This document shows, piece by piece, positions 1,350-64,000 of a stretch of 64,000 nt of DNA. Positions within the stretch are counted from its first letter, which is position 1, and every line of letters begins with the position of its first letter. Below the pieces are notes generated by a model. The model ran no database searches. It saw only the letters and a program-made list of their open reading frames with translations, and was not told the origin of the DNA. Origin of the DNA: Vicinamibacterales bacterium (GTDB lineage Bacteria > Acidobacteriota > Vicinamibacteria > Vicinamibacterales > UBA8438); NCBI GenBank assembly GCA_965116825.1, contig OZ220736.1, forward strand, positions 258,452-322,451, in the 5' to 3' direction. The translations under genes were made by a program, and so were the position numbers.

Positions 1350-1358
1350 CGACCGGCA

Positions 1359-2648: not shown

Positions 2649-2685
2649 CTTGACGTGCGGGATGTCGGCAGGCAGCGTGCTCCCC

Positions 2686-3102: not shown

Positions 3103-3184
3103 GATCCTGGTTCGGAACCGTTCATCTTAGCAGCCTGTAAGCGCCCGCACCGGCGGGATAGAATCCAGGGGCGAAGAGGGCCCC

Positions 3185-3745: not shown

Positions 3746-3784
3746 GGTCGCGCGCGAGACGGCGCGTCTCCCGGCGTGCGCGCC

Positions 3785-5359: not shown

Positions 5360-5366
5360 CAAGTGT

Positions 5367-6617: not shown

Positions 6618-7195
6618 CAGGTTCCTCCGTTGCGCCGGCCCGCCGCCCAGCGCAGCGCCGCGGCCAGATCGACCGCGGCCCGCGCGAGCTGCCGTATGCG
6701 GCCGGCGAGATCCGCCGATGCCGCGTGCCCCGCCGTGAAGTCGTCCTTGGTGGCGTAGACGTAGCGCGGAACGATGTGGCAGCGGAAATCGAACATCAGG
6801 CTGTTGGCGAGCCCGATCGGCGACATGTAGCTCCGGTGCCCGCCGGCGGCGCACAGAAACCCGACCGGCTTCTCCCCCCAGGCCTGTCCGGTCAGCTCGA
6901 CGAAGTTCTTCGCGGCGGCGTTCAGGTCGTAGTTGTAGACCGGCGACGCAATCAGGATGGCGCCGGCGCCGGCGACCTTCTCCGTCACCGGCCGGATCGC
7001 AGGGTGCTCGTAGCAGGCCTTGCCGTCGCAGATCGGCAGGTCCCACTCGCGCAGATCGAGCACCTCGTGCGGCGCGCCGATCGCCTGCAGCGCTTCTGCG
7101 GCACCAAGGGCCAGCGCGTGCGAGCGGCTGGCGGGGTTGAGCGAGCAGGACACAACAAGCACGGGATCGGCGGCTTCGTCGACCAGGGGATTCAT
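6617..7195 (-). CDS. NAD(P)H-dependent FMN reductase family oxidoreductase
   Basis: Last 192 aa of the 560-aa track ORF. MNPLVDEAADPVLVVSCSLNPASRSHALA..ILIASPVYNYDLNAAAKNFVELT. Its TGA (6617-6619) shares one nucleotide with the ATG of the downstream acyl-CoA dehydrogenase, suggesting translational coupling. Confidence 0.8.
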   Translation of the reverse strand: MNPLVDEAADPVLVVSCSLNPASRSHALALGAAEALQAIGAPHEVLDLREWDLPICDGKACYEHPAIRPVTEKVAGAGAILIASPVYNYDLNAAAKNFVELTGQAWGEKPVGFLCAAGGHRSYMSPIGLANSLMFDFRCHIVPRYVYATKDDFTAGHAASADLAGRIRQLARAAVDLAAALRWAAGRRNGGT

Positions 7196-7248
7196 CGCGG
7201 GAGAGTATAGTGGCCGGCCCGCCGCGGTGGGACGAGTGAGGCCCCCGT

Positions 7249-8433
7249 TCAGACGACGCCGCGTTCGCGCAGCGCCGCGACCGCCGGGCGCGAGTAGCCG
7301 AGGTCGGCCAGGATGGCCGCGGTGTGCTCGCCGAGCGACGGCGCGCGCCCGCGGATGCCGGCCGGCGCCGCCGACAGCGAAAACGGCGTCTGTGCCACCG
7401 GCGCCTGCGCCTCGGATCCCGGGGCGGCCACCGAGCGCAGCAACCCGATGGCCTGCACGTGCGCGTCGTCGAGCACCTGTTGCGGCGAGAGCACCGGCCC
7501 GGCCGGGATGCGCGCCGCATCGAGAGCGGCCAGCGCCTCGTCCGTGGTCCGTTCGCCGCACCATGCGGCCATCCGTTCGCTGATGGCCGCCCCGTTGTCG
7601 CCGCGGGACCGGTCGTCGGCGAAACGCGGGTCGTCGAGCCAGTGCGGCTCTCCGACGAGCGCCGTCCAGCGCCGGAAGAGCGGCTGGCCGATGCACTGCA
7701 CCAGCACCCAGCCGTCGCGCGTGCGAAAGGCGTCCGACGGCGCCTGCGTCTGGCTGCGGTTGCCGGTGGCCACCCGGTCCGGCCGGATCATCGCCTGCTC
7801 CATCAGCATGCCGTTGGCGATGGTGAGCGCCGAGGCGAGCAGCGACGCCCGCACCTGCTGCCCCTGCCCGGTCTCCCGCCGCACCAGCAGCGCCGCCAGC
7901 GTGCCCACCGTGGCGACCAGTGCGGTCGTGAAGTCGACGTACGGGCAGTAGGCCCGGGTGGGCTCGCCGGGGCGGCCCGACAGGTACATGATGCCGGACA
8001 TCGCCTGGCCGATGCCGTCGAACCCGAGCCGGTGGGACGACGGCCCGCCGCTGCCGAACGCCGAGACGCTGGTCAGGATTACGTCCGGCCTGATCGCCGC
8101 GAGCGCGTCGTAGTCCAACCCGAGCGCCTCGAGCGCCGCATCCGGCAGGTTCGCCACGACCACGTCGGTCTGCGCCACCAGCCGCTGCAGCACGTGCCGC
8201 CCCTCGGGCGTGCGCGGGTCGAGGGTCATCCCCCGCTTGCCGCGATTCACCTGCAGGTAGAAGGCGCCGTCGCCGGCCTCGGTGACCGGCACGAGCCAAC
8301 GATCTTCCCCGCCGCGCACCTTCTCCACGCGGATCACGTCGGCGCCGAGATCGGCGAGCAGCGCCGCGCAGAACGGGCCGGCGATGAAGCGGCCGAAGTC
8401 GAGGACGCGGAGGCCGTGCAAGGGGTCGGGCAT
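7249..8433 (-). CDS. Family III CoA-transferase (CaiB/BaiF-like)
   Basis: Last 394 aa of the 727-aa track ORF. MPDPLHGLRVLDFGRFIAGPFCAALLADLGADVIRVE.., FYLQVNRGKRGMTLD, VVVANLPDAALEALGLDYDAL. Confidence 0.88.
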   Translation of the reverse strand: MPDPLHGLRVLDFGRFIAGPFCAALLADLGADVIRVEKVRGGEDRWLVPVTEAGDGAFYLQVNRGKRGMTLDPRTPEGRHVLQRLVAQTDVVVANLPDAALEALGLDYDALAAIRPDVILTSVSAFGSGGPSSHRLGFDGIGQAMSGIMYLSGRPGEPTRAYCPYVDFTTALVATVGTLAALLVRRETGQGQQVRASLLASALTIANGMLMEQAMIRPDRVATGNRSQTQAPSDAFRTRDGWVLVQCIGQPLFRRWTALVGEPHWLDDPRFADDRSRGDNGAAISERMAAWCGERTTDEALAALDAARIPAGPVLSPQQVLDDAHVQAIGLLRSVAAPGSEAQAPVAQTPFSLSAAPAGIRGRAPSLGEHTAAILADLGYSRPAVAALRERGVV

Positions 8434-8634
8434 GATTCGGGAAGAATCTACACCGGCCGGGTCGCCCGGCGTCTCCGGAGACGGCACGCGCCCGGTTGCG
8501 CCCCGCGAACCGAACGATCTAGAGTCCACTGCACTTCGGCTCCCGCGCTCCGGGTGCACCGCATACCTGCAGTTGACGAAGACCATGCCCGGCTCGGGGC
8601 CGCGGGGCCGACGACGGGCAGCCAGGAGGAGAGC

Positions 8635-9060
8635 ATGGACAGCAAGGCATCGGCCGTCTGGAAGGGCGACCTGAAGGGCGGCAACGGCACGATCTCGGCC
8701 AACAGCGGCGTCCTGTCCGGCGCCGCGTTCACGTTCGCGACACGGTTCGAGGGCAGCCCGGGGACGAATCCGGAGGAGCTCGTCGCGGCGGCGCACGCCG
8801 GCTGCTTCTCGATGGCGCTGTCGAACGAGCTCGCCAAGGGCGGCAACACGCCGGATCACGTCAGCACCACCGCCACGGTGACCCTCGAGCCGGTCGAGGG
8901 CGGGGTCGCGGTCACGAAGATCCACCTCGAGTGCTCGGCCAAGGTGCCCGGCATCAGCCAGGCCGCGTTCGACGAGACGGCGAACGGCGCGAAGACCGGC
9001 TGTCCGATCTCGAAGCTGATGAACGCCGAGATCTCGCTGAACGCCGTCCTCGAGGCCTAG
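8635..9060 (+). CDS. OsmC family peroxiredoxin
   Basis: Last 141 aa of the 578-aa track ORF. MDSKASAVWKGDLKGGNGTIS.., both family cysteines present (AAHAGCFSMAL and KTGCPISK). ATG preceded by AGGAGGAGAGC. Confidence 0.88.
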   Translation: MDSKASAVWKGDLKGGNGTISANSGVLSGAAFTFATRFEGSPGTNPEELVAAAHAGCFSMALSNELAKGGNTPDHVSTTATVTLEPVEGGVAVTKIHLECSAKVPGISQAAFDETANGAKTGCPISKLMNAEISLNAVLEA

Positions 9061-9215
9061 CGCGACTTGGCGGTCGCGTTGGAGCTTGCTGGCGCGACAC
9101 TTCTGCGGCGCAAACTTCCGGCCCGTCAATCGCCGCGGGTCTCGGAACGCGGCCGGTCCGGTCCCCGCAGCACGCTGCGGCGGCGCCCGGGTCCGGCCGC
9201 GTATACTCTCTGGTG

Positions 9216-50797: not shown

Positions 50798-52714
50798 ATG
50801 GCGAGTTCATATTCGGCAAAGGACATCACCGTCCTCGAGGGCCTGGAGCCGGTGCGCAAGCGTCCCGGCATGTACATCGGGGGCGTCGGCTCGGCCGGCC
50901 TGCATCACCTCGTCTGGGAGATCCTCGACAACGCGGTCGACGAGGCCATGAACGGCCATGCCGCGAACGTTCAGGTGACGCTCCACGGCGACGGATCGAC
51001 GGTAACCGTCGTGGACGACGGCCGCGGCATGCCGGTCGACCGGCACCCGAAGACCGGCCGGAACGCGCTGGAGGTGATATTCACCACGTTGCATGCGGGT
51101 GGAAAATTCGAGAATCGGACCTACCGCACGGCCGGCGGGCTGCACGGCGTCGGCGCCAGCGTGGTCAACGCCCTGTCGCAGGAGCTGGTCGCCACGTCGA
51201 AGCGGGACGGCTTCCTCTGGCAGCAGACCTTCCGGCGCGGGAAGCCGGTGGCCGCACTTCAGAAGCTGAAGCCGGCGCGCGGCACCGGCACCACCATCCG
51301 CTTCCACCCTGATCCGCGAATCTTCCCCAGGACCACGTTCGATGCCGGGCTCATTCGGCAGCGGCTCGAAATCGCCAGCTACGTCCACGGCGGGGTGCGG
51401 TTCGTGTTCACGGACGAGGCCCAGGACGCCAGGGAGGAGTTCCGCCACGAGCACGGCCTGCCGGACTACCTCGCCCGGCTGGTGAAGGAACGCGGCGCCG
51501 ACCCGGTGCACGACGCGCCGTTCCTTCTCGCGCGGGAGCACGCGGACTCGGGCTCGCGGATCGAGGTCGTGCTGCAGTGGACGGAGGCTACCGACGAGCA
51601 CCTGCGCAGCTACGTCAACGGCATCCCGACCGCGTCCGGCGGCACGCACGAGAACGGTGTGCGGGCCGGCCTCGGCAAGGCCGTCCGCAACTTCATCGAG
51701 ACGCACAACCTCACCCCGAAGGGGGTCTCGCTTACCGCGGACGACATACGGGAGGGACTTGCCGGCGTCATTTCGCTCTTCGTCCCGAACCCGCAGTTCC
51801 AGGGACAGACCAAGGACCGGCTGAACAATCCCGAGCTCGCACCGGTCCTCGACGGCGCGGTGCGGCCCGCCCTCGAACACTGGCTGAACCACAACATCAG
51901 CGTGGCCGAGGCGATCGTCGCGCGGATCATACTGGCCGCCCGTGCGCGCGAGGCGAGCCGTGCCGCACAACAGGCGGTATCGCGCAAGAGCGCGACGTCG
52001 AACCGGCTGAATCTGCCCGGCAAGCTGAGCGACTGCACCGGCAATGCCCGCGGCGACAGCGAGCTCTTCATCGTGGAGGGCGATTCTGCGGGCGGCTCCG
52101 CCAAGCAGGGACGCGACCGGACCCGGCAGGCAATCCTCCCGCTGCGCGGCAAGGTGCTCAACGTCGAGAGCGCCCCGACATCGAAGGTGCTGGCCAACAA
52201 GGAGCTGTCCGACGTCGTGACCGCGCTCGGCTGCGGCCTCGGAAAGAACTTCGACATCACGAAGCTGCGCTATGACCGGATCATCATCCTCGCCGATGCG
52301 GATTCGGACGGCAACCACATCGCCACGCTGCTGCTGACCTTCTTCTACCGTTTCCTGCCGAAGCTGATCGCCCACGGGAAGGTCTTTCTGGCGCAGCCGC
52401 CGCTCTATCGCATCGACGTCGGCAAGGAAACCTTCTGGGCGCTCGACGACGGCCACCGCGACACCATCGTCAAGGCGCACACCAACGGTCGCGGCGCTCC
52501 CGAGATCACACGCTTCAAGGGCCTTGGGGAAATGATGCCGAAGGTGCTGTGGGAGACCACTCTGAATCCCCTCACGCGGCGCCTGCTGCGGGTGGCGGTC
52601 AGCGATCAGCTCCTGACCGACAGAGTCATCACGGACCTGATGGGCAAGGACGCCTCGGCGCGGTTCCGTTTCATCATGGAGCGGGCCGACGAAGCTCTGG
52701 ATCTGGACGTGTAG
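50798..52714 (+). CDS. Type IIA DNA topoisomerase subunit B (GyrB/ParE family)
   Basis: 638-aa ORF. LEGLEPVRKRPGMYIGG, LHHLVWEILDNAVDEA, GGLHGVGASVVNALS, Toprim EGDSAGGSAKQGRDR and ILADADSDGNHI, KGLGEM. Confidence 0.92.
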   Translation: MASSYSAKDITVLEGLEPVRKRPGMYIGGVGSAGLHHLVWEILDNAVDEAMNGHAANVQVTLHGDGSTVTVVDDGRGMPVDRHPKTGRNALEVIFTTLHAGGKFENRTYRTAGGLHGVGASVVNALSQELVATSKRDGFLWQQTFRRGKPVAALQKLKPARGTGTTIRFHPDPRIFPRTTFDAGLIRQRLEIASYVHGGVRFVFTDEAQDAREEFRHEHGLPDYLARLVKERGADPVHDAPFLLAREHADSGSRIEVVLQWTEATDEHLRSYVNGIPTASGGTHENGVRAGLGKAVRNFIETHNLTPKGVSLTADDIREGLAGVISLFVPNPQFQGQTKDRLNNPELAPVLDGAVRPALEHWLNHNISVAEAIVARIILAARAREASRAAQQAVSRKSATSNRLNLPGKLSDCTGNARGDSELFIVEGDSAGGSAKQGRDRTRQAILPLRGKVLNVESAPTSKVLANKELSDVVTALGCGLGKNFDITKLRYDRIIILADADSDGNHIATLLLTFFYRFLPKLIAHGKVFLAQPPLYRIDVGKETFWALDDGHRDTIVKAHTNGRGAPEITRFKGLGEMMPKVLWETTLNPLTRRLLRVAVSDQLLTDRVITDLMGKDASARFRFIMERADEALDLDV

Positions 52715-53214: not shown

Positions 53215-54306
53215 GTGCATTGGTATCCAAGCTACGTACCTGTCGATGAGCAGCGGGCACGAACCGTATCGGAGATGCTCGAGCTGCGAGCACGCGGCGT
53301 GCGGGTGCAGCCGATCGAGATCAGGGGACGCACCATCGCGCAGGGCTTCTGGGGCCGCCGTTGGTGCGAACACCTGGAATCGTTTTCGGAACATGCGGCC
53401 CGTCTCGCGCACGGGCGCGCCTACGTGCGCAACGGCTCCGTCTGTCATCTGGCGATAGACGCCGGCGGCATCGACGCGATGGTGGTCGGATCGACGCTCT
53501 ACCACGTCGCCATTCGCATACGGCAACTCGATAGAGCGACCTGGACCGCCATCTCGAGCGCGTGCGCCGGAGAGATCGGCTCGGTAGACGAGTTGCGCGA
53601 GGGCCGATTGCCCGATCGAGTCGTCGAAGTCCTCACCGATCGCGACGCCGGCCTGTTCCCGGGTCCTGGCGAGATCGTGCCGGAATGCGAGTGCTCCGAC
53701 CGGGCGACCATGTGCAAGCATGCAGCCGCCGCGCTGGCCGGCGTCGGCAGCCGGCTCGACGACCACCCGGAGCTGCTCTTCCTGCTGCGCGGTATCGACG
53801 AGACGGAGCTGACTGGAACGGTCGCGTCGCCGCCACACGGGAACACGGAAATCGAACCGTTGGCCAACGGCAATCCCGGAACGTTCTTCGACGTCGGTCT
53901 CGCCGCCGGCGGCGCAGCGGCGCCAGAGTCCACAGCGACACTGAACCTCGCGGGACCGGAAACGCCGGGCGCGCCCGCCTTCAGAGACTCCATCCCGACC
54001 CCGGCGGCGCCTCGCAAGGTCAAGAAGACGCTCACGTATCGACCTCCGACCTCGATCACCCACCGCGCGGCACTCCCGCAGACGGGCGGAAACGATGCAA
54101 CCGATGGATTCCAGCCTACGGGCGAGCTGGTCGCGAGCCTGCGCGAGCGCTGCGGCTGCTCGGTCGTCGAGTTCGCGGATCTGATTCAGGTCACCGCGAC
54201 GACGGTGCGCCGCTGGGAAACCACGTCCGGACGGCTCAACCTGCACGCCCGCCCGTGGGAGGCCCTGCTGGCGCTGCACCTGGAAATCGAGAAACACGAG
54301 GCCTGA
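53215..54306 (+). CDS. SWIM zinc-finger protein with C-terminal XRE-like HTH
   Basis: 363-aa ORF (GTG start). SWIM CxCxnCxH signature in PECECSDRATMCKHAAAAL, preceded by the family-typical GFWGRRWCEHLESF and RGRAYVRNGSV. The C-terminal ..CSVVEFADLIQVTATTVRRWETTSGR looks like an HTH. Confidence 0.75.
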   Translation: MHWYPSYVPVDEQRARTVSEMLELRARGVRVQPIEIRGRTIAQGFWGRRWCEHLESFSEHAARLAHGRAYVRNGSVCHLAIDAGGIDAMVVGSTLYHVAIRIRQLDRATWTAISSACAGEIGSVDELREGRLPDRVVEVLTDRDAGLFPGPGEIVPECECSDRATMCKHAAAALAGVGSRLDDHPELLFLLRGIDETELTGTVASPPHGNTEIEPLANGNPGTFFDVGLAAGGAAAPESTATLNLAGPETPGAPAFRDSIPTPAAPRKVKKTLTYRPPTSITHRAALPQTGGNDATDGFQPTGELVASLRERCGCSVVEFADLIQVTATTVRRWETTSGRLNLHARPWEALLALHLEIEKHEA

Positions 54307-55367: not shown

Positions 55368-55985
55368 ATGGCCGCGCTCGACTGGATCACCATAGAGGGG
55401 TTCAAGAGCATCAAGCGCATCGAGCGCTTGCACCTGAACCCCATCAATGTCCTGATCGGGTCCAACGGCTCCGGAAAGTCGAACTTCATCGGCTTGTTCT
55501 CGTTCCTTCGCGAGATCCGCGCCGGGCGGCTGCAGGAGTACGTGAGGCGGTCCGGCGGCGCGGACAAGGTCCTGCATTTCGGGACCCGAAACACGTCGCG
55601 GTTGGACGTCCATGCATCGTTGGGCGACGAGGTGAACCAATACGTACTCACACTGGCCTCGAATGCAGAGGACAGTCTCTTTCCGCTACGGGAAGAGTGT
55701 CACGGACGTGGACAAAGACACATCCTCTCGACATCGGGACCGGAAACCTGGATCAGCGAACGCGACCTGCACATTTGCGATCGCGATGCGGCGATCCAGG
55801 ACGTCCGCATGCACCTCGATAGTTGGCGTGTCTACCACCTGCACGACCGTGGACGGCGGAACGCAGCTCATCAGGCTGTTGCTGCGGAACTCGAAGAATG
55901 GCTGCAAGACGACAGCCTCGGCCAGTTGTGGGAAAAGAACCAGTTCGGCGGCCGGCCCGGCCGTATCGGTGCCGAGCGGCAGTAG
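55368..55985 (+). pseudogene. Remnant of an AAA_21/AAA_15-type (ABC/SMC-like) ATPase, internally deleted
   Basis: 205-aa ORF. N-terminus intact (IEGFKSIKRIERLHLNPINVLIGSNGSGKSNFIGLFSFL..GGADKVLHFG..WRVYHLHD). It then jumps to a short C-terminal tail (..LGQLWEKNQFGGRP). No Walker B/DEPE, signature or H-loop region. About half the length I expect for this family. Confidence 0.6.
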
Positions 55986-55990
55986 AAACG

Positions 55991-56196
55991 ATGTCCCGGC
56001 TGCTGGTTCACGTCGAGGGCCAGACCGAAGAGCGATTGTGGGGCAGCGGGTGGAACGCCTCGTCCGTGGAGACCAGAAACCCCTGCTGGGCACGCTTGCC
56101 GCATTGGAGATCGGGCTCGGAACCATGCGGCTTGAATGCCCTCACTTCGGGGGCTGGCCGAATCGCCTGGAGGAGTTGCCGCAAATCCAGGCCTGA
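55991..56196 (+). pseudogene. Remnant of a DUF4276 family gene (partner of the AAA ATPase)
   Basis: ATG at 55991 gives MSRLLVHVEGQTEE, the characteristic DUF4276 N-terminus. It then degenerates. A different frame ending at 56196 carries a C-terminal-like ..LECPHFGGWPNRLEELPQ. The middle of the gene is missing. Confidence 0.5.
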
Positions 56197-56230
56197 GCCG
56201 AGGAGTGCGAGGGCCACTGGATTCGGGCGT

Positions 56231-56257
56231 CGGTGAGCGCGGACGAGAGGCTCACCG
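56231..56257. terminator. 8-bp stem hairpin between the convergent DUF4276 remnant and the LplA-like gene
   Basis: CGGTGAGC (56231-56238), 11-nt loop, GCTCACCG (56250-56257). 21 nt past the LplA-like stop. No U-tract, so function as an intrinsic terminator is uncertain. Confidence 0.25.
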
Positions 56258-56278
56258 TCACGAACGACCGCAACGGCT

Positions 56279-56998
56279 TCAGCCGGACGTACACCGCGCG
56301 CTGAGCGCGGGGAGCCGCCCGAGACGGCGCACGATTTCGTCGCGCGGCAGCGGCGCGTTGGTCAGGAACTCGCGGTGGGTCCGCCGCCCGCGCCAGGCCG
56401 GGCGGCGCGGCGGCTCCGGCAGCAGCGCGTCGATCAGGGCGAGATCGAAGTCGTAGAGCAGCACCCCGTGGTGGAGGAGGGCGCCGCGCACCCGCCGCTG
56501 AGCGTGCCCGGCGAACTTCCGCTCGCGAACGGCGAGGTCGGTCGACCGGGTCGCGACGCCGTCGACGGCCAGGACGCCGGCCAGCCCGCTGAGCACCCAC
56601 GCGTAGCTGCGTTCGACGTCGGCCAGCCAGGGGCGCGTGCCGAGCGACAGCACCAGCGCGACGTTCAGGCAGCCGGGACCGACGACGACCGCGCCGCCGC
56701 CCGATTCCCGGTGCAGCAGCGGAATGCCCCGCGCGGCGCAGGCCGGCCGGTGCGCCCACGCCTCGGGATCGCCGCGCCGGGGCAATATCACGGCAGTCCG
56801 GGTGGACTCCCAGATGAGCAGCCGCTCGCCCGCATCCGCCGGGGCGGCCGTGCCGACCCGCGGGACCGGCGCCCGCCCGGGGGCATCCGCACGCAGAGCC
56901 GTCCGCCGTGCCACGGCCTGTTCCAGGCGCCGCAACGCCTCGATTTCGAGCGCGAGCCCGCGCCCCGGCGGCAGCGGCCCGTGATCTTCGAGGTGCAT
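56279..56998 (-). CDS. Lipoate/octanoate-protein ligase-like protein (BPL_LplA_LipB family)
   Basis: In-frame ATG (56998) of the 277-aa ORF. LLIWESTRTAVILPRRGD, LLHRESGGGAVVVGPGCLNVALVL (cf. the RxSGGGAV motif of LplA), and catalytic-lysine context DLAVRERKFAGHAQRR. Confidence 0.78.
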   Translation of the reverse strand: MHLEDHGPLPPGRGLALEIEALRRLEQAVARRTALRADAPGRAPVPRVGTAAPADAGERLLIWESTRTAVILPRRGDPEAWAHRPACAARGIPLLHRESGGGAVVVGPGCLNVALVLSLGTRPWLADVERSYAWVLSGLAGVLAVDGVATRSTDLAVRERKFAGHAQRRVRGALLHHGVLLYDFDLALIDALLPEPPRRPAWRGRRTHREFLTNAPLPRDEIVRRLGRLPALSARCTSG

Positions 56999-57124
56999 GG
57001 AATGGCGCGGCTCCCGCGACGGCGCCCGGACGTCGACACGCGGTCGCATCGCCGAAACGGGCGCGCCCCGGCGGCCGTACCGCGGCAGCGTGCGCCAGCG
57101 TTCCAGGTACAATCCAGATCCACC

Positions 57125-58300
57125 GTGCCATCACCTGAGCGCTCCGGGCCAGTGTATCTGGATTGCGCGGCCACCTGTCCCATCGACCCGCGCGTGCAAG
57201 CCGAGCTGCGGCGCTTCAGCGAAGTGGACTTCGGCAACGCCGGTAGCCGCACGCACGCCCACGGGCGGGTCGCGCGGCAGGCGGTGGAACGCGCGCGCGC
57301 ACACGTCGCGCGGGTGGCGGGCGTGCGCCGCAACGAGGTGGTCTTCACGAGCGGCGCCACCGAGTCGAACAACCTGGCCCTGCTCGGCCTCGAGACCTTC
57401 GGGCGCGCCGAGGGCCGCACGCACCTCGTCGGCACGACGATCGAGCACCACGCGGTGCTGGAGCCGTTGCGCGTGCTCGCCGCGCGCGGCTTCGAGCTGA
57501 CCCTGGTGGATCCGGAGCCCGGCGGCCGGGTCGACGCGGACCGCGTGGCCGCCGCGGTGCGGTCCGACACGCTGCTCGTCTCGGTGATGCAGGTCAACAA
57601 CGAGACCGGCGTCCAGCAACCGATCGCCGGGATTGCGGACCGGCTTTCCGGATCGGAAGCCTTCCTGCACGTCGACGCGGCGCAGGGATTCGGGAAGGCG
57701 CTCGCGGCGCTGCGGCATCCCCGCGTCGATCTGATCAGCGTCAGCGGCCACAAGATCTGCGGCCCGAAGGGCATCGGGGCCCTGCTCGCCCGGCATCGGG
57801 CCGGCGCGCGCCCCCCGCTGGCGCCTTTGCTCCACGGCGGCGGACAGGAGCTGGGACTGCGCCCCGGCACGCTCCCGGTCGCGCCGATCGCGGCGTTCGG
57901 CAGGGCGGCCGAGCTGGCTCTCGACGAGCACGGCGCCCGCCGCGCGGCGGCGGCCGCGTTCGAGCAGCGCCTGCTCGCGGGACTGGCGCCCCTCGGGCCG
58001 CGAGTGCACGGCGACCCCGACCATCGGCTGCCGTACATCCTCAATCTCTCGATTCCGGGCTGGGACAAGGAGGCGCTCATCGAGGCCTGGGCCGATCTGG
58101 CCGCCATCTCCGACGGTGCCGCCTGCACCTCGCAGTCCTATACCTGCAGCCATGTGCTGGCCGCGATGGGACTGTCGGCGGCCGAGGAAGCCGGCGCCGT
58201 GCGGCTCTCGTGGTGTCATCTGTCCGAGCTGCCGGACCTCGCGGCGATGACCGGCGCGCTGCTCGCCGGCGCCGTCTCAGGAGCGCCGCGGTCATCATGA
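57125..58300 (+). CDS. Class V aminotransferase / cysteine desulfurase (NifS/IscS-like)
   Basis: GTG at 57125 inside the 641-aa track ORF. VYLDCAATCPIDPRV.., FTSGATESNNLAL, PLP lysine in SVSGHKICGPKGIGAL, active-site Cys loop ISDGAACTSQS. Confidence 0.85.
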   Translation: MPSPERSGPVYLDCAATCPIDPRVQAELRRFSEVDFGNAGSRTHAHGRVARQAVERARAHVARVAGVRRNEVVFTSGATESNNLALLGLETFGRAEGRTHLVGTTIEHHAVLEPLRVLAARGFELTLVDPEPGGRVDADRVAAAVRSDTLLVSVMQVNNETGVQQPIAGIADRLSGSEAFLHVDAAQGFGKALAALRHPRVDLISVSGHKICGPKGIGALLARHRAGARPPLAPLLHGGGQELGLRPGTLPVAPIAAFGRAAELALDEHGARRAAAAAFEQRLLAGLAPLGPRVHGDPDHRLPYILNLSIPGWDKEALIEAWADLAAISDGAACTSQSYTCSHVLAAMGLSAAEEAGAVRLSWCHLSELPDLAAMTGALLAGAVSGAPRSS

Positions 58301-58773
58301 CGACGCCCTCCGCGAGCTTCATCCGCTACAAGCGCTCCCGGTTCGCGACGCGCCTGCCGGCCGGCCACCGCTACACCCGGTCGCACTACTGGCTGGATCG
58401 GGACGCTTCCGGAGGCTGGCGGATCGGATTGACGACATTCGCCACCCGGATGCTGGGCGACCTAGTAGAATGCACGTTTGCGGTAGGGCCGGGCGACACG
58501 GTGGAGGTGGGCCAGCCGATCGGCTCGATAGAGGGGTTCAAGGCAATCTCCGACATCTACGCGGTGGCGTCGGGCCGCTTCGTCGGGGCGAACGCAGCCC
58601 TCGACAGCGACATCACGCTGGTCGAATCGGCGCCGTACGGCGACGGCTGGCTCTACGTCGTGGACGGGACCGCGGATCCGGAGAACCTCGGCGTCGGCGA
58701 GTACGTGCACGTGCTCGACGCGACGGTCGACAGGATGCTGGCAAGCCGCCGCGAAGGTGACAAGGATGTCTGA
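58297..58773 (+). CDS. GcvH-like lipoyl-carrier protein (glycine cleavage H family)
   Basis: ATG 58297 forms an ATGA overlap with the desulfurase stop. YTRSHYWLD..WRIGLTTFATRMLGDLVEC (H-protein N-terminal signature). Lipoyl-lysine context GSIEGFKAISDIYAVASG. PYGDGWLYVV. Confidence 0.8.
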   Translation: MTTPSASFIRYKRSRFATRLPAGHRYTRSHYWLDRDASGGWRIGLTTFATRMLGDLVECTFAVGPGDTVEVGQPIGSIEGFKAISDIYAVASGRFVGANAALDSDITLVESAPYGDGWLYVVDGTADPENLGVGEYVHVLDATVDRMLASRREGDKDV

Positions 58774-59908
58774 CCTCGAACCGGGACCGAAGACGACGGC
58801 GGATGCCCGGGCCCGCTATGTCATGGTCGGCGGCTTCCTCGGCGCCGGCAAGACGACGGCGATCCTCCGGCTCGCGCGGTTTCTGACCGGGCAGGGACAG
58901 CGGGTCGGGTTGATCACCAACGATCAGAGCGTCGGCCTCGTCGACACGACGCTCGCCCGCGCGCAGGGATTCCCGGTGGAGGAGATCACCGGCGGCTGCT
59001 TCTGCTGCCGGTTCAACACGTTGATGGACGCGGCCGACCGGCTGAACGCCGAGGCCCGGCCCGACGTCTTCATCGCCGAGCCGGTGGGAAGCTGCACGGA
59101 CCTGCGGGCCGCGGTCAGCTATCCGTTGCGGCGGATGTACGGCGACGCGTTCGAGATCGCGCCGCTGAGCGTGCTCGTCGATCCGCTTCGCGCGCTGCGG
59201 GTGCTCGGGCTGGAAGCGGGCCGCTCGTTCTCCAGGAAGGTGCTGTACGTCTACGACCGGCAGCTCGCCGAGGCGGACGCCATCGTGGTGAACAAGGTCG
59301 ACCTGCTCGACGAGGCGCGGCTGGAACGGCTGCGCAACGCGCTGGCGGCGCGCTATCCGCGGGCAGACGTGCTCGCCATGTCGGCGCGCGAGGGAGACGG
59401 GGCGGCCTCCTGGTTCGAGCGGGTGACGCGCGGTGCTATGGGTCTCGGGACGTCACCGGACGTAGACTACGAGGTGTACGCCGAGGGCGAGGCGCTGCTC
59501 GGCTGGCTGAACGCGACGGCGCGCGTCTCCTGCGACACGCCGTTCGACGGCAATGCGCTGCTGCGCGGCCTCGCCGGACACATGGCGGAGGCCATCGGCA
59601 CGGCGGAGATCGCGCACCTGAAGATGACGCTGACCGCGGAGGAGCTGCCGTCGGACATCGCCGTGCTGAATCTGGTGGCGGGCGACCGCGGCGCCGAGCT
59701 GGCCCACACGCTGAAGGCGCCGGTCGACGCGGGCGAGCTGATCGTCAACCTGCGGGCCGAGGATGACCCGGAGCGCCTGCACGACGCGGCGCTGGCGGCC
59801 ATCGCGGCATGGGAGGCGGCCGGCGCCGGACGCCGGGCCGCCATCGAGCACATCGAGCACTTCCGGCCGGCCAAGCCGACTCCGACCTGGCGCATGGCGA
59901 CGGCGTGA
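58757..59908 (+). CDS. G3E-family P-loop GTPase (CobW/HypB/UreG/COG0523-like metallochaperone)
   Basis: 383-aa ORF. Walker A GGFLGAGKTT, CxCC-like metal motif GGCFCC, FIAEPVGS, NKVDL. Overlaps the GcvH-like 3' end (GTG 58757 or ATG 58766). The C-terminal about 150 aa are unassigned. Confidence 0.8.
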   Translation: MTRMSDLEPGPKTTADARARYVMVGGFLGAGKTTAILRLARFLTGQGQRVGLITNDQSVGLVDTTLARAQGFPVEEITGGCFCCRFNTLMDAADRLNAEARPDVFIAEPVGSCTDLRAAVSYPLRRMYGDAFEIAPLSVLVDPLRALRVLGLEAGRSFSRKVLYVYDRQLAEADAIVVNKVDLLDEARLERLRNALAARYPRADVLAMSAREGDGAASWFERVTRGAMGLGTSPDVDYEVYAEGEALLGWLNATARVSCDTPFDGNALLRGLAGHMAEAIGTAEIAHLKMTLTAEELPSDIAVLNLVAGDRGAELAHTLKAPVDAGELIVNLRAEDDPERLHDAALAAIAAWEAAGAGRRAAIEHIEHFRPAKPTPTWRMATA

Positions 59909-60285
59909 TGAGCGAGAACGAGGCATCGACGACGACGGCGGCCCCCAACCTGGTCTACTGCCGCTGCACCTACGCCCGGGTGGTGCCGCGCAAGGTGAAG
60001 GACGGCGTCCTCGAGGCGCTGTCGGCCTCCGGCGTAGACTTCGACGCGGTGCCCGACCTGTGCGAGATGTCGGCGCGCCGGGATCCGCGGCTGGCGGAGA
60101 TCGCCGGCGGCAAGGCGGTGACCATCGCCGCCTGCTATCCGCGGGCCGTGCGCTGGCTGTTCTCCTCTGCCGGCTCGCCGCTGGACAAGGAACGGGTCGA
60201 GATTCTCAACATGCGCGAGGAGACGGCCGAGGCCGTGGCTGCCTCGATGCTCACGCCGAACGGCGACGACGGAGGCGACCGATGA
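59908..60285 (+). CDS. Small Cys-containing protein of unknown function
   Basis: 125 aa. MSENEASTTTAAPNLVYCRCTYARVVPRKVKDGVLEAL..VPDLCEMSARRD..VTIAACYPRAVRWLF. The start shares one nucleotide with the upstream stop (TGATG). Its stop forms an ATGA overlap with the next gene. No family recognised. Confidence 0.6.
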   Translation: MSENEASTTTAAPNLVYCRCTYARVVPRKVKDGVLEALSASGVDFDAVPDLCEMSARRDPRLAEIAGGKAVTIAACYPRAVRWLFSSAGSPLDKERVEILNMREETAEAVAASMLTPNGDDGGDR

Positions 60286-61169
60286 GCCGCACCAGCACCC
60301 TCTCGCTACCCGTGCTGCGGGTGGCGCTGTACGAAGGCCGCGGCGCGAAGCCGCTGGACGGCGAGCGCCGCTTCGCCCTGATGCAGACGCTGCTCGACAA
60401 GGGCTATCGCGTGACGCGGGTCGGGTCGGGCGCCGCGACCGCCGCCGCGGCCCGCGCCGACGACGGCAACGCGCTGGCCGTGCTCGGCCGCTTCACAGAG
60501 CGCCAGCCGGCCGAGGCGGTCGGGGCCGAGTCCGGGGGCCGGGTCTGGTTCCGCGACATCGGCGACGAGACGCCCGACGGCGTGGCGGCGCTGGTCGAGG
60601 CCATCCGCGCCGAAGGCGAGGTCCACGAGCCGGGCAAGTGGAAGCCGTGGTTTCCGGTCATCGACTTCGATCGCTGCACGAACTGCATGCAGTGCCTGAG
60701 CTTCTGCCTCTTCGACGTCTACGGCGTCTCGAAGGCCGGCCAGATCCAGGTCCAGAACCACGACAACTGCAAGACCGACTGCCCCGCGTGCTCGCGGGTC
60801 TGCCCCGAGGTCGCCATCCTGTTCCCGAAGTACCGCCACGGGCCGATCCACGGCGGCGAGATCCAGGCCGACGACGTGCGCCGCGAGGCGATGAAGGTCG
60901 ACATCTCGGCCCTGCTCGGCGGCGACATCTACGCCGCGCTGCGCGACCGGAGCGCGAAGGCGAAGTCGCGTTTCTCGAAGGAACGCGACGAGGAACGGGC
61001 GCTCAAGGAGCGCCAGAAATGCCTGGTCAAGCTGCAGCAGAATCTCGACATACCGGCCGAGGTGCTGGCGAGCCTGCCTACGCTCGACGAGATCCAGGCC
61101 AAGGCCGAGACCGCCAAGGTCCGGGCGCAGGCCGCCATCGACGCCGCCGCGGCGCGGCAGGAGGGCTGA
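60282..61169 (+). CDS. 2x[4Fe-4S] ferredoxin-domain protein with unassigned N-terminal domain and coiled-coil tail
   Basis: Last 295 aa of the 468-aa track ORF. Cluster motifs CTNCMQCLSFC and CKTDCPACSRVCP. C-terminal charged helical tail KERDEERALKERQKCLVKLQQ..AKAETAKVRAQAAIDAAAARQ. Confidence 0.8.
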   Translation: MSRTSTLSLPVLRVALYEGRGAKPLDGERRFALMQTLLDKGYRVTRVGSGAATAAAARADDGNALAVLGRFTERQPAEAVGAESGGRVWFRDIGDETPDGVAALVEAIRAEGEVHEPGKWKPWFPVIDFDRCTNCMQCLSFCLFDVYGVSKAGQIQVQNHDNCKTDCPACSRVCPEVAILFPKYRHGPIHGGEIQADDVRREAMKVDISALLGGDIYAALRDRSAKAKSRFSKERDEERALKERQKCLVKLQQNLDIPAEVLASLPTLDEIQAKAETAKVRAQAAIDAAAARQEG

Positions 61170-61173
61170 CAAC

Positions 61174-62367
61174 GTGGTGCTGGGATTGGCCAAACGGATG
61201 CTCACCGAGCCGGACCCGCGCGCATTGCGGAAGCTGGTCTGGAACATGGGCGTCAAGGGCGTCCGCTCGGTCCAACGCTACAAGCAGCGGCTGAAGCGGG
61301 GCGAGCACTTCCCGCCGTTCCTGTTCATCTCGGTGATCTCGGGCTGCCAGTTGCGCTGCCAGGGGTGCTGGGTCGACGTCGAGGCGCCGAGCCGGAAGAT
61401 CGAGATCGACGAGCTGAGCCGCATCGTCGGGGACGCCAAGCGGCACGGCAACAGCTACTTCGGCATCCTGGGGGGCGAACCGCTGCTGCACCCGGATCTG
61501 TTCGAGCTGTTCGCCGAGCACCAGGACTGCTACTTCCAGCTCTTCACCAACGGGCATCTGATCGACGACGCGCGGGCGGCCGAGCTGCGCCGGCTCGGGA
61601 ACGTGACGCCGCTGGTCAGCATCGAGGGCACGTCGGTGGTGAGCGACGAGCGCCGCGGCCGGAGCGACGTCCTCGACAAGTCCCTGGCCGGACTCGAAGC
61701 CTGCACCCGGAACCGGCTCGTCACCGGGGTGGCCACCAGCGTCTGCAAGACCAACATCGACGATCTGGTCCAGGAATCGTGGCTGCGCCGGCTCATCGAG
61801 ATGGGCGTGCACTATGCTTGGTTCCACACCTACCGGGTCATCGGACCGAAGCCGGCGGAAGAGATCGCCCTGACGCCGGAGGAGGTGCTTCGCGTGCGCC
61901 GGTTCATCGTCCGCATGCGGGCGCGGTTGCCGATCGCCATCGTCGACGCCTACTGGGACGACGAGGGGCAGGCGCTGTGCCCGATGGCGACCGGGGCGAG
62001 CCACCACATCAGTCCGTACGGCGACATCGAGCCGTGCCCGATCATCCAGTTCGCGACCGAAACGGTCTATGATCGGCCGAGCGTCTACGAGACCATGACG
62101 AATTCGTCGTTCCTCAAGGACTTCCGCGAGACTGCGGCACGGACCACGCGCGGCTGCATCGTGCTGGAACGGCCCGATCTGGTGCGCGAGCTCGTGGAGC
62201 GGCACGGGGCGCGGGACACGACGCAGCGGCAGACGGCGTCCGCGGAGCTGGCGCAGCTCACCGGCCGCAGCAGCCAGCACAACCCCGGAAACGAGATCCC
62301 GGAGGAGCACTGGGCCTACGCCTTCGCGAAGAAGCACTGGTTCTTCGGGTTCGGCGCGTACAGCTAG
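61174..62367 (+). CDS. Radical SAM enzyme, subfamily unassigned
   Basis: 397-aa ORF, 4 nt after the ferredoxin gene. CX3CX2C in ISVISGCQLRCQGCWV. GGEPLLHPD glycine-rich SAM motif. Additional C-terminal cysteines (QALCPMATG..DIEPCPIIQF..RGCIV). Confidence 0.85.
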   Translation: MVLGLAKRMLTEPDPRALRKLVWNMGVKGVRSVQRYKQRLKRGEHFPPFLFISVISGCQLRCQGCWVDVEAPSRKIEIDELSRIVGDAKRHGNSYFGILGGEPLLHPDLFELFAEHQDCYFQLFTNGHLIDDARAAELRRLGNVTPLVSIEGTSVVSDERRGRSDVLDKSLAGLEACTRNRLVTGVATSVCKTNIDDLVQESWLRRLIEMGVHYAWFHTYRVIGPKPAEEIALTPEEVLRVRRFIVRMRARLPIAIVDAYWDDEGQALCPMATGASHHISPYGDIEPCPIIQFATETVYDRPSVYETMTNSSFLKDFRETAARTTRGCIVLERPDLVRELVERHGARDTTQRQTASAELAQLTGRSSQHNPGNEIPEEHWAYAFAKKHWFFGFGAYS

Positions 62368-62415
62368 GAGCCTGCGCCGCGGAACCGGCCTCCGATCGAG
62401 CGAGTCGCCAAGCAA

Positions 62416-62441
62416 GAACGCTGGATCTCACAAACGCTGGA
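62416..62441. repeat. Direct repeat AACGCTGGAT x2 (16-bp phasing) in the only sizeable gap of the operon
   Basis: aacgctggat at 62416-62425 and 62432-62441, within the comparatively AT-rich 92-nt spacer between the radical SAM gene and the DUF116-polyprenyl synthase gene. Confidence 0.6.
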
Positions 62442-62459
62442 TATCAACGGAAGACGCCT

Positions 62460-64000
62460 GTGAGTTATCAACTACCGGTCGTTTCGCTCCCGCGCGCGGT
62501 GCCGCCGACGGTCATGCGGCCGCCGCAGGAGAACATTCCGCAGACCCGCGCGGAGCGCGAGGTGATGCTGCGGCAGGTCCAGGACTACGTCGCGGCGCGC
62601 CGCAGCGAGATCACGCCGCCGCTGGTCATGGGCGAGTTGCAGGCGCGGTCCGACGAGCTCCTGCGCGGCCACGGCATCGACAGCAGGTATCGCGACTACG
62701 TGGGCGTGATCCTCGGCAACGAGGTGTGGCGCGAGCACCTGGCCGCCGTCCCGTACGACAAGCGCCTGCTGCTGCTGCCCAAGTGCCTGCGGGTCGAGGA
62801 CCGTTGCCCCGCCCCGTTCGACGAGTTCGGCCTGCTTTGCAAGCAGTGCGGCCTGTGCACGATCCAGGACCTGCAGGAAGAAGCGGAGAAGCTCGGCTAC
62901 GCGGTGCTCGTCGCCGAGGGCTCGGCCCTCGTGATGGCGCTGATCCAGACCGGCAAGATCGAGGCGATCGTCGGCGTGAGCTGCCTCTCCGTTCTCGAAC
63001 GGGCCTTCCCGTACATGGAGGCGGCGGCGATCCCCGGCGTGGCGATCCCCCTGCTGCAGGACGACTGCAAGGACACCGGGGTCGACGTCGAGTGGGTCTG
63101 GGATTTCATTCACGCGACCAGCGACGACCGCACCCGGCGGCTGGACCTCGACGCGCTGCGGCAGGACGTCGAGAGCTGGTTCACGCCCGACGCACTCGAC
63201 GGCGTGTTCGGCGGGCCGCCGGCCGGCGAGACGGAAACGCTCGCGCGCGCCGAGCTGACCCGGGCGGGCAAGCGCTGGCGGCCGTTCCTCAGCGTATGCG
63301 TCTACCAGGCGCTGCAGGACGACCCGCACGCGGCGCCCCCGGACGCGCTGCGCAAGGTCGCGGTGGCGGTGGAGTGCTTCCACAAGGCGTCGCTGGTCCA
63401 CGACGACATCGAGGACGGCGACGCCCGCCGCTACGGCGAGCCGACGCTGCACGCCTCGCACGGCATTCCGGCGGCGCTGAACGCCGGCGACTACCTGATC
63501 GGCGAGGGTTACCGGCTGCTCGCGGAGAGCGACTTCGCACCCGAGATCCGGGCGCAGATGACGGCCATCGCAGCGCGCGGCCATCGGACGCTCTGCCTCG
63601 GCCAGGGCGAGGAGCTGGCCTGGGCGCGCAACCCGCGGCCGCTCACTTCGCAGCAGGTGCTGCAGATCTTCCGGCAGAAGACCGCGCCCGCGTTCGGCGT
63701 GGCGCTCGAGTTGGGGGCGGCCTGCGCCCGCGCCGACACGGAGGTCTTCGAGAAGCTGCGGGCGTACAGCGACGCACTGGGCATCGCGTACCAGATCCGG
63801 GACGACGTCGACGACTTCGAGCCTTCCGCGGATGCGCCGGACGACGTGACGGCGCTCCGCCCGTCGCTGCCGCTCGCCGTCGGCTACGAGCAGGCCAAGT
63901 CCGAGGCCGACGCCCGGTCCACCCTCGAGGCGGCGTGGCGCCGCGAGCGGGCCGTCGACGGCCGGTCGGGCGAGGTGCGCGAGCTGCTCGGCCGATTCGA
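62460..64000 (+). CDS. DUF116 (Cys-rich) domain fused to trans-polyprenyl diphosphate synthase; C-terminus beyond window
   Basis: Own translation (not in the track because no stop lies inside the window). N-terminal half ..DKRLLLLPKCLRVEDRCPAPFDEFGLLCKQCGLCTIQDL..AVLVAEGSALVMALIQTGKIEAIVGVSCLSVLERAF.. matches my memory of DUF116. C-terminal half has FARM (SLVHDDIEDGDARRYG) and SARM (AYQIRDDVDD) motifs. Start uncertain: TTG 62460 with GGAAG upstream, GTG 62499 or ATG 62514. Confidence 0.8.
   Translation, partial: MSYQLPVVSLPRAVPPTVMRPPQENIPQTRAEREVMLRQVQDYVAARRSEITPPLVMGELQARSDELLRGHGIDSRYRDYVGVILGNEVWREHLAAVPYDKRLLLLPKCLRVEDRCPAPFDEFGLLCKQCGLCTIQDLQEEAEKLGYAVLVAEGSALVMALIQTGKIEAIVGVSCLSVLERAFPYMEAAAIPGVAIPLLQDDCKDTGVDVEWVWDFIHATSDDRTRRLDLDALRQDVESWFTPDALDGVFGGPPAGETETLARAELTRAGKRWRPFLSVCVYQALQDDPHAAPPDALRKVAVAVECFHKASLVHDDIEDGDARRYGEPTLHASHGIPAALNAGDYLIGEGYRLLAESDFAPEIRAQMTAIAARGHRTLCLGQGEELAWARNPRPLTSQQVLQIFRQKTAPAFGVALELGAACARADTEVFEKLRAYSDALGIAYQIRDDVDDFEPSADAPDDVTALRPSLPLAVGYEQAKSEADARSTLEAAWRRERAVDGRSGEVRELLGRF

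Follow-up and report, generated by a model that had tools for sequence, protein, structure and literature searches.

Introduction

A lipoyl carrier that is related to the glycine-cleavage H protein (GcvH) and encoded among iron-sulfur (Fe-S) proteins has its nearest described counterpart in sHdr-LbpA sulfur oxidation with its sLpl(AB)-LipS1/LipS2 lipoate assembly, wherein the lipoyl arm of LbpA is thought to handle protein-bound sulfur (PMC10332631, PMC11094781). Here we analyse a gene cluster in which a carrier of this type is encoded together with isoprenoid genes, at 56279-64000 of a 64,000-nt stretch of contig OZ220736.1 from a Vicinamibacterales bacterium (hereafter the window), off whose 3′ edge the operon runs. 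The cluster comprises a gene for an LplA-like ligase, divergent to plus-strand genes for a cysteine desulfurase, the GcvH-like carrier, a G3E GTPase, a 125-aa cysteine protein (cys125), a ferredoxin-domain protein, a radical S-adenosylmethionine (SAM) enzyme and a fusion of DUF116 with a polyprenyl synthase. By its predicted proteins, the context of this operon is terpenoid biosynthesis.

The C35 sesquarterpene pathway of Bacillus uses a long-chain prenyl synthase, followed by cyclisation by SqhC, a homologue of squalene-hopene cyclase (SHC). A DUF116 gene of a Bipolaricaulota isolate has as its neighbours ispH and genes for an SHC, HpnH and a polyprenyl synthase. Makarova and co-workers predicted DUF116 to be a flavodoxin-like domain with a CxxCxxC metal site and an electron-transfer role, noted a DUF116-polyprenyl synthetase fusion in Pirellula staleyi (Psta_0175) and found archaeal DUF116 adjoining another SIMIBI-class NTPase (PMC5898192). 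No functional description of the operon was found in the literature searched, where the Psta_0175 fusion and the Bipolaricaulota gene were the sole related finds. What is new is a terpene-type cluster of a known kind joined to a set of modules not described for any pathway, a combination that carries a real chance of new chemistry.

The operon extends into terpenoid genes

An exact look-up of the radical SAM protein of the window gave no match, and the continuation of the operon was located via a 99%-identical cys125 on contig L084, which belongs to the same species and shares 99.1% nucleotide identity with window positions 56243-64000. In this sister contig, from which the downstream genes are read here, the operon extends ~2.9 kb beyond the window edge into genes for a prenyltransferase-like toroid protein and a squalene-hopene-cyclase-like protein, and unrelated genes (HicB, Fe-ADH) come next; a second relative (L001) has the identical downstream gene order. 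The original prediction, made from the window alone, had described an operon with no recognisable client pathway, which no longer holds, and had suggested that client enzymes may lie downstream, which is where the toroid protein and the cyclase are encoded. Judged from the sequence, three-quarters of a conserved operon, from its 5′ end on, lie inside the window.

The cyclase-like protein has the features of class II (protonation-dependent) beta-gamma terpene cyclases: the DxDD-containing sequence VPDADDT is invariant in 55 orthologues and is accompanied by several Q..DGGWG (QW) motifs. It is related to the Alicyclobacillus SHC (2.6e-20) and misses the cutoffs of the hopene cyclase and squalene cyclase models (TIGR01507, 100.7 vs 431.1 bits; TIGR01787, 137.8 vs 322.7 bits). 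The toroid protein is nearest in sequence to RabGGTase beta (2e-10), followed by drimenyl diphosphate synthases and farnesyltransferase beta. The Zn site of protein prenyltransferase beta subunits is not kept, the candidate Cys position being C, T, V or A and the candidate His position H, C, W or S across clades, and no gene for an alpha subunit partner is present. A role as a Zn-dependent S-prenyltransferase, which would explain the G3E GTPase, was rejected on the grounds that these candidate ligands are not conserved.

The DUF116::polyprenyl synthase fusion measures 581 aa at its full length on the sister contig. Its synthase domain is that of a trans-isoprenyl diphosphate synthase (PF00348, 143.8 vs 27 bits), with invariant first (DDIED, 63402-63416) and second (DDVDD, 63801-63815) Asp-rich motifs, and reaches no chain-length-specific equivalog. 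Small residues upstream of the first Asp-rich motif are typical of longer-chain prenyl synthases. Positions -5 and -4 before this motif are invariantly Ala and Ser, compared with Tyr at -5 in the Pyrococcus C20 enzyme, suggesting a product above C20. The AlphaFold model of the Cys-rich DUF116 domain (pLDDT 82) comprises three helices and a flavodoxin-like alpha/beta domain; it has no significant solved structural neighbour, and a lenient Pfam scan returned nothing else. Weak similarity of DUF116 to cobalamin-binding/Rossmann-like domains (E = 0.012, TM 0.23) was not counted as evidence.

In 54 of 56 loci, drawn from three phyla, the synthase gene runs into the toroid gene in a different reading frame, with a median overlap of 41 nt (L084:14255-14295 in the sister contig). 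Both the C-terminus of the synthase (GWCSEFE...) and the N-terminus of the toroid protein (MLQVARL) are conserved, suggesting that ~13 codons are under dual coding constraint.

Nine collinear genes in three phyla

Genomes were scanned at one per species, the gene context was recorded for the best 80 loci, and collinearity was assessed in the 64 species-level loci with sufficient flanking DNA. By relatives of its radical SAM enzyme, the operon is represented in no fewer than 417 species-level genomes, besides thousands of metagenomic sequences, and the best 120 of >7900 close database relatives are 73-94% identical. The best 80 loci all come from metagenome-assembled genomes, labelled as Vicinamibacterales, Bryobacterales/Solibacteraceae, several Planctomycetota orders and Armatimonadota. 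Hosts include Pirellulales, Phycisphaerae and Abditibacteriaceae, which together with Vicinamibacterales and Bryobacterales are abundant soil and freshwater groups. DUF116 fragments labelled Verrucomicrobiota were also found.

All nine plus-strand genes are collinear in 56 of the 64 loci, spanning Acidobacteriota, Planctomycetota and Armatimonadota, and tblastn with all cluster proteins finds the same gene order and strand nearly everywhere. The overlaps are conserved as well, with median junctions in complete loci of -4, -8, -1, -4, +4, +25, -41 and ~0 nt. An arrangement of nine genes kept in this way is far beyond chance and upholds the tightly coupled unit that had been proposed from the window. 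In two Pirellulales loci the desulfurase gene is relocated directly 3′ of the cyclase gene and is still within the operon, which is otherwise unchanged. The gene for the LplA-like ligase is restricted to Acidobacteriota, being divergent upstream in 36 of the 56 complete loci, and is missing from the Planctomycetota and Armatimonadota versions.

Beyond the operon, all-against-all clustering of flank open reading frames (ORFs) yielded no further conserved neighbours, the sampled flanks being unrelated. The absence from the window of genes that classically use a lipoylated H protein had been pointed out earlier and extends to its relatives: within ±10 kb in the 80 related loci, no glycine-cleavage P/T/L, 2-oxoacid dehydrogenase or Hdr gene is conserved.

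Two carriers of the operon or of DUF116 fragments have discordant labels, L057 (in a record titled uncultured Bifidobacteriaceae) and P0269 (labelled Bacillota). Their proteins are 72-84% identical to Acidobacteriota and Planctomycetota versions, which makes mis-binning likelier than true presence. In one Bryobacterales lineage (L002/L003/L031, ~1200-9200), the desulfurase, GcvH and G3E genes are locally absent, the LplA-like gene adjoins the ferredoxin gene and two DDE transposase genes are near, a layout that looks like a rearrangement mediated by insertion sequences.

Gene layout

Coordinates of the ten genes are collected in Table 1. All eight reading frames of the window are present in the ORF listing with their translations, and seven have a supporting Pfam label, cys125 being the exception. 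The gene identities, motifs and junctions read from the window in the original prediction were all recovered. None of the eight window proteins reaches an NCBIfam curated cutoff, the nearest being the DndA-type desulfurase (442.6 vs 480 bits). The G+C content is ~70-75% across the window, and the composition of the cluster is the same as that of the rest.

Table 1 Genes of the cluster in the window and on the sister contig L084
Gene product	Position	Strand	Support
LplA-like lipoate-protein ligase, catalytic domain only	56279..56998	-	Pfam LplA-B_cat 9e-27
Class I (IscS/NifS/DndA-like) cysteine desulfurase	57125..58300	+	Aminotran_5 9e-58
GcvH-like lipoyl carrier	58297..58773	+	GCV_H 8e-22
G3E (COG0523/CobW-type) GTPase	58757..59908	+	cobW 5.5e-24
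cys125, 125-aa protein with four conserved Cys	59908..60285	+	no named family
2x[4Fe-4S] ferredoxin-domain protein, 295 aa	60282..61169	+	several Fer4 families (Pfam)
Radical SAM enzyme	61174..62367	+	Radical_SAM 9e-17
DUF116::polyprenyl synthase, cut by window edge	62460..64000	+	DUF116 1e-34 and polyprenyl_synt 7e-42
Prenyltransferase-like alpha/alpha-toroid protein, 285 aa	L084, 41-nt overlap with fusion gene	+	PF00432 42.8 vs 26.5 bits
Squalene-hopene-cyclase-like protein, 605 aa	L084, after toroid gene	+	SQHop_cyclase_N and _C above Pfam cutoffs

The desulfurase and GcvH genes meet at an ATGA (58297-58300), as do the cys125 and ferredoxin genes (60282-60285), and the G3E and cys125 genes at a TGATG (59906-59910). 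The GcvH and G3E genes overlap by 8 nt if the latter starts at ATG 58766, or by 17 nt if it starts at GTG 58757. A 4-nt gap (61170-61173) separates the ferredoxin and radical SAM genes, followed by a 92-nt gap (62368-62459) before the fusion gene, which starts at GTG 62460; no terminator-like site lies in this 92-nt gap, and a scan for promoters and terminators gave nothing exceeding chance. For the LplA-like gene, ATG 56998 (239 aa, as on the sister contig) is a likelier start than TTG 57112, to which the ORF is open, and leaves a 126-nt divergent intergenic region. For the desulfurase, 57125 and 57155 are alternative starts.

An older core that includes the radical SAM enzyme

The radical SAM enzyme carries its CxxxCxxC motif (CQLRCQGC) at 61345-61368. 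The only other Cys residues universal in the family are C269, C288 and C328 in the C-terminal region, a pattern that would fit one auxiliary cluster with a possibly open site, and an aromatic C-terminal tail, YRxxKKxxFFGFGAYG, is a family hallmark. Identity across phyla is 68-97%, and about 70% between phyla. The 43 NCBIfam matches of the enzyme are all far below cutoff (the best 60 vs 525), among them the HpnH equivalog TIGR03470 (34.7 vs 225 bits). By fold, Foldseek places the model next to SkfB, SuiB, viperin, BlsE, NifB and MoaA (TM ~0.4-0.5), with biotin synthase only 44th (TM 0.37), and LipA, BioB and MiaB/RimO are found neither among the NCBIfam or PDB sequence hits shown nor among the top fold hits. 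On these grounds the enzyme is assigned to an uncharacterised SPASM/twitch-type family that is not LipA-, BioB- or LipS-like. This single SPASM/twitch enzyme, together with the lack of sHdr neighbours, agrees with the misfit to the LbpA/LipS1-LipS2 scheme that had been suspected from the window.

The protein cys125 has four conserved Cys residues (C18, C20, C52 and C76) and, even at E = 10, no real Pfam, NCBIfam or PDB sequence match; none of its 2344 homologues bears a functional name. An MvhD/FlpD-like identity, suspected from the Cys spacing, was dropped for want of any Pfam or PDB signal at that threshold. The ferredoxin, present in 82 of 83 loci, contains the motifs CTNCMQCLSFC (60675-60707) and CKTDCPACSRVCP (60768-60806); its N-terminal domain varies, whereas its charged C-terminal tail is conserved. 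We also considered and rejected the N-terminal domain as a degenerate copy of cys125 (hhalign probability 0.2).

An exhaustive profile search for distant relatives of the radical SAM enzyme returned rare full-length proteins with 37-53% identity, for which there is no named family. Their loci separate the cluster into parts. In L088 (53%), the related genes are limited to those for a cys125-ferredoxin fusion, the radical SAM enzyme, DUF116::synthase and the toroid protein; L090 (37%) encodes the radical SAM enzyme, ferredoxin, DUF116::synthase and toroid protein; and L087 (48%) has a 675-aa fusion of cys125, ferredoxin and radical SAM enzyme (P0363), after which come genes for DUF116 and the synthase and a toroid gene with a frameshift. 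A cys125-ferredoxin fusion occurs in L074 as well. Desulfurase, GcvH and G3E genes lie near none of these distant relatives, L093 and L094 lacking them upstream of the core, and the cyclase is absent in the three distant loci that extend beyond the toroid gene.

An older core of cys125, ferredoxin, radical SAM enzyme, DUF116::synthase and toroid protein is therefore one that exists without the other genes; with such links, the radical SAM enzyme is most probably no lipoyl synthase. From the contexts and fusions at the distant loci, it follows that cys125 and the ferredoxin probably serve as the radical SAM enzyme's own electron chain, that these three proteins, as a unit, belong with the synthase and the toroid protein, and that the desulfurase, GcvH and G3E genes (hereafter the trio) were acquired later, in the environmentally dominant clade only. 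The cyclase appears to be likewise a later addition of the dominant clade.

Relatives at ~30% identity (481-503 aa, SPASM) lie in unrelated contexts, in one case directly after men genes, and were treated as a different family. The latter case, a 503-aa SPASM radical SAM protein with 30% identity, directly follows menF, menD, menB, menC and menE domain matches (L092:1805-9512), and the representative of its cluster is found on several hundred contigs; this hints at an uncharacterised menaquinone-linked radical SAM family. A 45%-identical protein (P0364, L089:10001-11257) has lost the CxxxCxxC motif (GGSLARQSTGV), retains the three C-terminal Cys residues and adjoins a polyprenyl synthase, an FAD enzyme and a HemN-like radical SAM gene. 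By these residues it may be a non-catalytic derivative.

Carrier, desulfurase, GTPase and ligase

The GcvH-like protein is, by its sequence relationships, a real H-protein homologue. It passes the Pfam GCV_H domain cutoff (77.9 vs 22.2 bits), its best solved relatives are true H proteins (2e-19), and the lipoyl-Lys (codon 58540-58542; EGFKA, aa 79-83) is kept in at least 98% of 73 orthologues. It carries an N-terminal extension of ~18 aa and does not reach the GcvH equivalogs TIGR00527 (80.9 vs 115.85 bits) and NF002270 (84.3 vs 117).

The desulfurase retains the pyridoxal phosphate (PLP)-binding Lys motif SGHK (57743-57754) and the catalytic-Cys motif GAACTS (58115-58132) in 67 orthologues. 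Its score of 313 bits with IscS compares with the sub-cutoff DndA score given above, and an identity as DndA, the enzyme of DNA phosphorothioation, is further contradicted by the absence of dnd genes from the window tail and the related loci.

The GTPase has the marks of a G3E metallochaperone, namely a PF02492 match (85.2 vs 20.7 bits) and conservation of Walker A GAGKTT, GGCFCC (58991-59008), EPVGSC and NKVD. Its C-terminal domain of ~150 aa is without family assignment, the sole solved relative found is YjiA (7e-8), and neither the named G3E subfamilies (CobW, ZigA, HypB, MeaB) nor any NCBIfam equivalog is reached. A parallel system suggested by weak NCBIfam matches ('CobW-related selenoprotein', 'GcvH-related protein', TrsS) was dropped for lack of support in the papers checked.

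The best NCBIfam match of the LplA-like protein is to lipoate-protein ligase (55 vs 280 bits), and its RKFAGHAQ motif with the conserved Lys lies at 56498-56521. An LplA-like catalytic domain with the conserved Lys, which may represent a dedicated ligase for the carrier, is confined to the Acidobacteriota loci, and no LplB-type accessory domain was seen. The absence of the ligase from two phyla suggests that the carrier bears ordinary lipoate or octanoate supplied by housekeeping enzymes, and its dispensability there that the lipoyl arm would be the working part.

Proposed pathway

We tentatively favour, at a little under an even chance, a reading in which the product of the operon is a polyprenoid lipid of medium or long chain length, tailored and probably cyclised, and the trio is an add-on for the supply of sulfur or metal centres. 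The synthase would build a prenyl chain longer than C20, which the toroid protein and the cyclase would fold and cyclise, and the radical SAM enzyme, held at the membrane via its aromatic C-terminal tail, would tailor the lipid by radical chemistry. The carrier, which would ordinarily be lipoylated, would form with the desulfurase and the GTPase a swinging-arm delivery of sulfur and/or metal-sulfur units for the Fe-S-rich machinery; in the version that we favour, cysteine-derived sulfane sulfur on the lipoyl arm would pass to the product or to a sacrificial cluster. In evolutionary terms, the trio would have joined the core at its 5′ end and the cyclase gene at its 3′ end in the dominant clade, and Acidobacteriota would further have gained the divergent ligase gene. 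The second of the two hypotheses put forward in the original prediction, a carrier-protein-dependent modification of an isoprenoid, comes close to this reading.

For the trio, sulfur handling is suggested by the desulfurase gene, which is kept in the operon even when moved and is translationally coupled to that of the carrier. We assign the trio a role in sulfur or metal-sulfur delivery, serving the Fe-S core and the cyclase, with moderate to low confidence. A more specific scheme is unlikely as a whole. In it the lipoylated H-protein paralogue would take sulfane sulfur from the desulfurase, with the G3E protein gating or metallating the transfer, and pass it to synthase, cyclase and radical SAM enzyme assembled at the membrane, the product being a sulfur-bearing or otherwise radical-tailored polycyclic polyprenoid derived from a regular C25-C40 chain.

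Several points weigh against the favoured reading. None of the ten proteins of the operon lies above the cutoff of a curated model. The radical SAM enzyme belongs to a core that works without a dedicated sulfur supply and is unlike LipA, BioB and MiaB, so that its reaction need not involve sulfur; its AlphaFold model is mediocre (pLDDT 63). The chain-length argument is drawn from two residues. To our knowledge, G3E GTPases act as metal chaperones (Ni, Co, Zn) and not as sulfur or Fe-S factors. Delivery of sulfur or metal by the GcvH-like protein has as its sole basis the analogy with LbpA of the sHdr system (PMC10332631, PMC11094781).

Alternative explanations

The main rival, which we consider somewhat unlikely, retains the lipid pathway and makes the trio a private line for assembly and repair of Fe-S and metal centres in cys125, ferredoxin, radical SAM enzyme and DUF116, with no sulfur in the product; such a line would be needed by hosts that are for the most part aerobic. 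The operon encodes four proteins predicted to bind metals or Fe-S clusters, a NifS/IscS-class desulfurase typically feeds cluster assembly, the core clades without the add-on presumably draw on housekeeping systems, and the archaeal pairing of DUF116 with a SIMIBI-class NTPase (PMC5898192) points the same way. However, no IscU, NifU, SufBCD, Nfu or A-type scaffold or carrier is encoded in or near the operon in the 80 loci, GcvH has no known role in cluster assembly, and the confinement of the add-on to the cyclase-carrying clade is left unexplained.

A variant of the hopanoid-type pathway appears improbable. Here, the cyclase would act on squalene made elsewhere and the radical SAM enzyme, HpnH-like, would add a 5′-deoxyadenosyl or similar group, as might be suggested by the membership of the cyclase in the SHC/OSC superfamily with its DxDD motif, a weak HpnH match of the radical SAM enzyme (9e-9) and the Bipolaricaulota gene neighbourhood mentioned above. 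The scores for the hopene cyclase model (101 vs 431 bits) and HpnH (35 vs 225) are nevertheless far too low, squalene synthase and hpn genes occur in none of the 80 loci, the operon encodes its own head-to-tail prenyl synthase with long-chain-type residues, and the radical SAM core exists without any cyclase.

Improbable to the same degree is a role of the carrier in electron input, wherein dihydrolipoyl-GcvH, reduced by dihydrolipoamide dehydrogenase, would reduce the radical SAM cluster by way of DUF116 or cys125 and then the ferredoxin, in aerobes without low-potential donors. Three dedicated electron-transfer modules do lie in a row, and the add-on is confined to a clade of aerobic soil and water lineages; yet, by established redox potentials, electrons would have to move uphill from lipoamide to reach a ferredoxin or radical SAM cluster, and the desulfurase and the GTPase would have no role.

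A cassette for maturation of the lipoyl carrier, in which the ligase would octanoylate the GcvH-like protein and the radical SAM enzyme, fed by desulfurase, ferredoxin and GTPase, would insert two sulfurs, was the first hypothesis of the original prediction and is highly improbable, being largely refuted by gene context: its components (ligase, lipoyl-Lys carrier, desulfurase, ferredoxin and radical SAM enzyme) are all present and translationally coupled, but radical SAM enzyme, ferredoxin and cys125 are linked to DUF116::synthase and toroid protein in GcvH-less clades and fused to one another rather than to lipoate genes, the one radical SAM gene (not two) encodes a SPASM/twitch-type and not a BioB/LipS- or LipA-type enzyme, the ligase is missing in two phyla, and the terpenoid genes are left unexplained.

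It had also been stated at the outset that the idea of an unusual assembly would fall if a known lipoate-dependent complex adjoined these genes, if their adjacency were not conserved, or if the radical SAM protein turned out to be a characterised enzyme unrelated to its neighbours. None of this holds: no such complex adjoins them, the genes stay strongly linked across the loci, and no characterised family takes in the radical SAM enzyme.

Significance

The proteins of this operon are unusually conserved, yet none of the ten belongs to a characterised family. Solving the operon would yield a product together with functions for DUF116/COG1852, a large radical SAM family and the cys125 family, and would test whether a lipoyl carrier has a biosynthetic role outside central metabolism and sulfur oxidation. 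The product is possibly a new cyclic isoprenoid lipid, which would be of interest to membrane biology and organic geochemistry. If sulfur is indeed carried to the lipid by the H-protein paralogue, the operon would reveal a function of lipoate and a class of bacterial lipids that are both new, and might be a biological source of orphan cyclic polyprenoid biomarkers such as tricyclic terpanes; we know of no producer of tricyclohexaprenol, the proposed tricyclic-terpane precursor. Pirellula staleyi, a cultured carrier of the DUF116::synthase fusion (Psta_0175), makes the system experimentally approachable.

Adjacent genes

Next to the cluster, a candidate defence pair is intact on the sister contig, namely HEC-01A (AAA_21 ATPase, 1e-134) and HEC-01B (DUF4276, 5e-70), accompanied by a PhdYeFM antitoxin gene (L084:3979-6119). 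The window retains no more than a 205-aa remnant of the ATPase, at 55368-56243, and lacks the partner, a difference that amounts to a ~1.5-kb deletion between strains otherwise 99% identical. Also upstream of the cluster are genes for a 638-aa GyrB/ParE-type topoisomerase subunit (50798-52714) and a 363-aa protein (53215-54306) with a SWIM-like CxC...CxH motif (CECSDRATMCKH), whose near-identical counterpart on the sister contig has no Pfam match on record.

Comparison with known systems

The sHdr-LbpA system and the present operon have in common a GcvH-like lipoate-binding protein outside glycine cleavage and a carrier gene located beside those for Fe-S-rich proteins and sulfur-mobilising enzymes; in Acidobacteriota, the LplA-like protein may further correspond to the LplA-type ligase of that system. 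In contrast to that system, Hdr-like, DsrE, TusA and rhodanese genes were not found in the present loci, a single SPASM/twitch radical SAM enzyme replaces the pair of BioB-like LipS proteins, the operon further encodes a cysteine desulfurase and a G3E GTPase, the ligase is lacking in two phyla, and the whole is embedded among terpenoid genes.

Tes/GDGT-MAS resembles the operon in the placement of a radical SAM enzyme with an auxiliary cluster next to isoprenoid genes and a dedicated ferredoxin. However, the Tes model is not matched by the radical SAM protein of the window (38 vs 450 bits for a distant relative), the architecture differs and the hosts here are bacterial.

With hopanoid biosynthesis (SHC and HpnH), the operon shares the pairing of a beta-gamma class II cyclase (DxDD, QW) with a radical SAM enzyme from the MoaA/NifB/PqqE/SkfB group that acts, or here would act, on lipids. 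Here, by contrast, the cyclase and the radical SAM enzyme are far below the family cutoffs, squalene synthase and hpn genes are absent, and the operon has instead a DUF116-fused regular prenyl synthase, an extra toroid protein and a module of lipoyl carrier, desulfurase and GTPase.

Like the Bacillus C35 pathway, the operon would supply a regular head-to-tail chain longer than C20 as the substrate of an SHC-family class II cyclase. The two differ in that the present operon is without a YtpB-type class I enzyme, and in that radical SAM, Fe-S and lipoyl modules belong to the present operon only.

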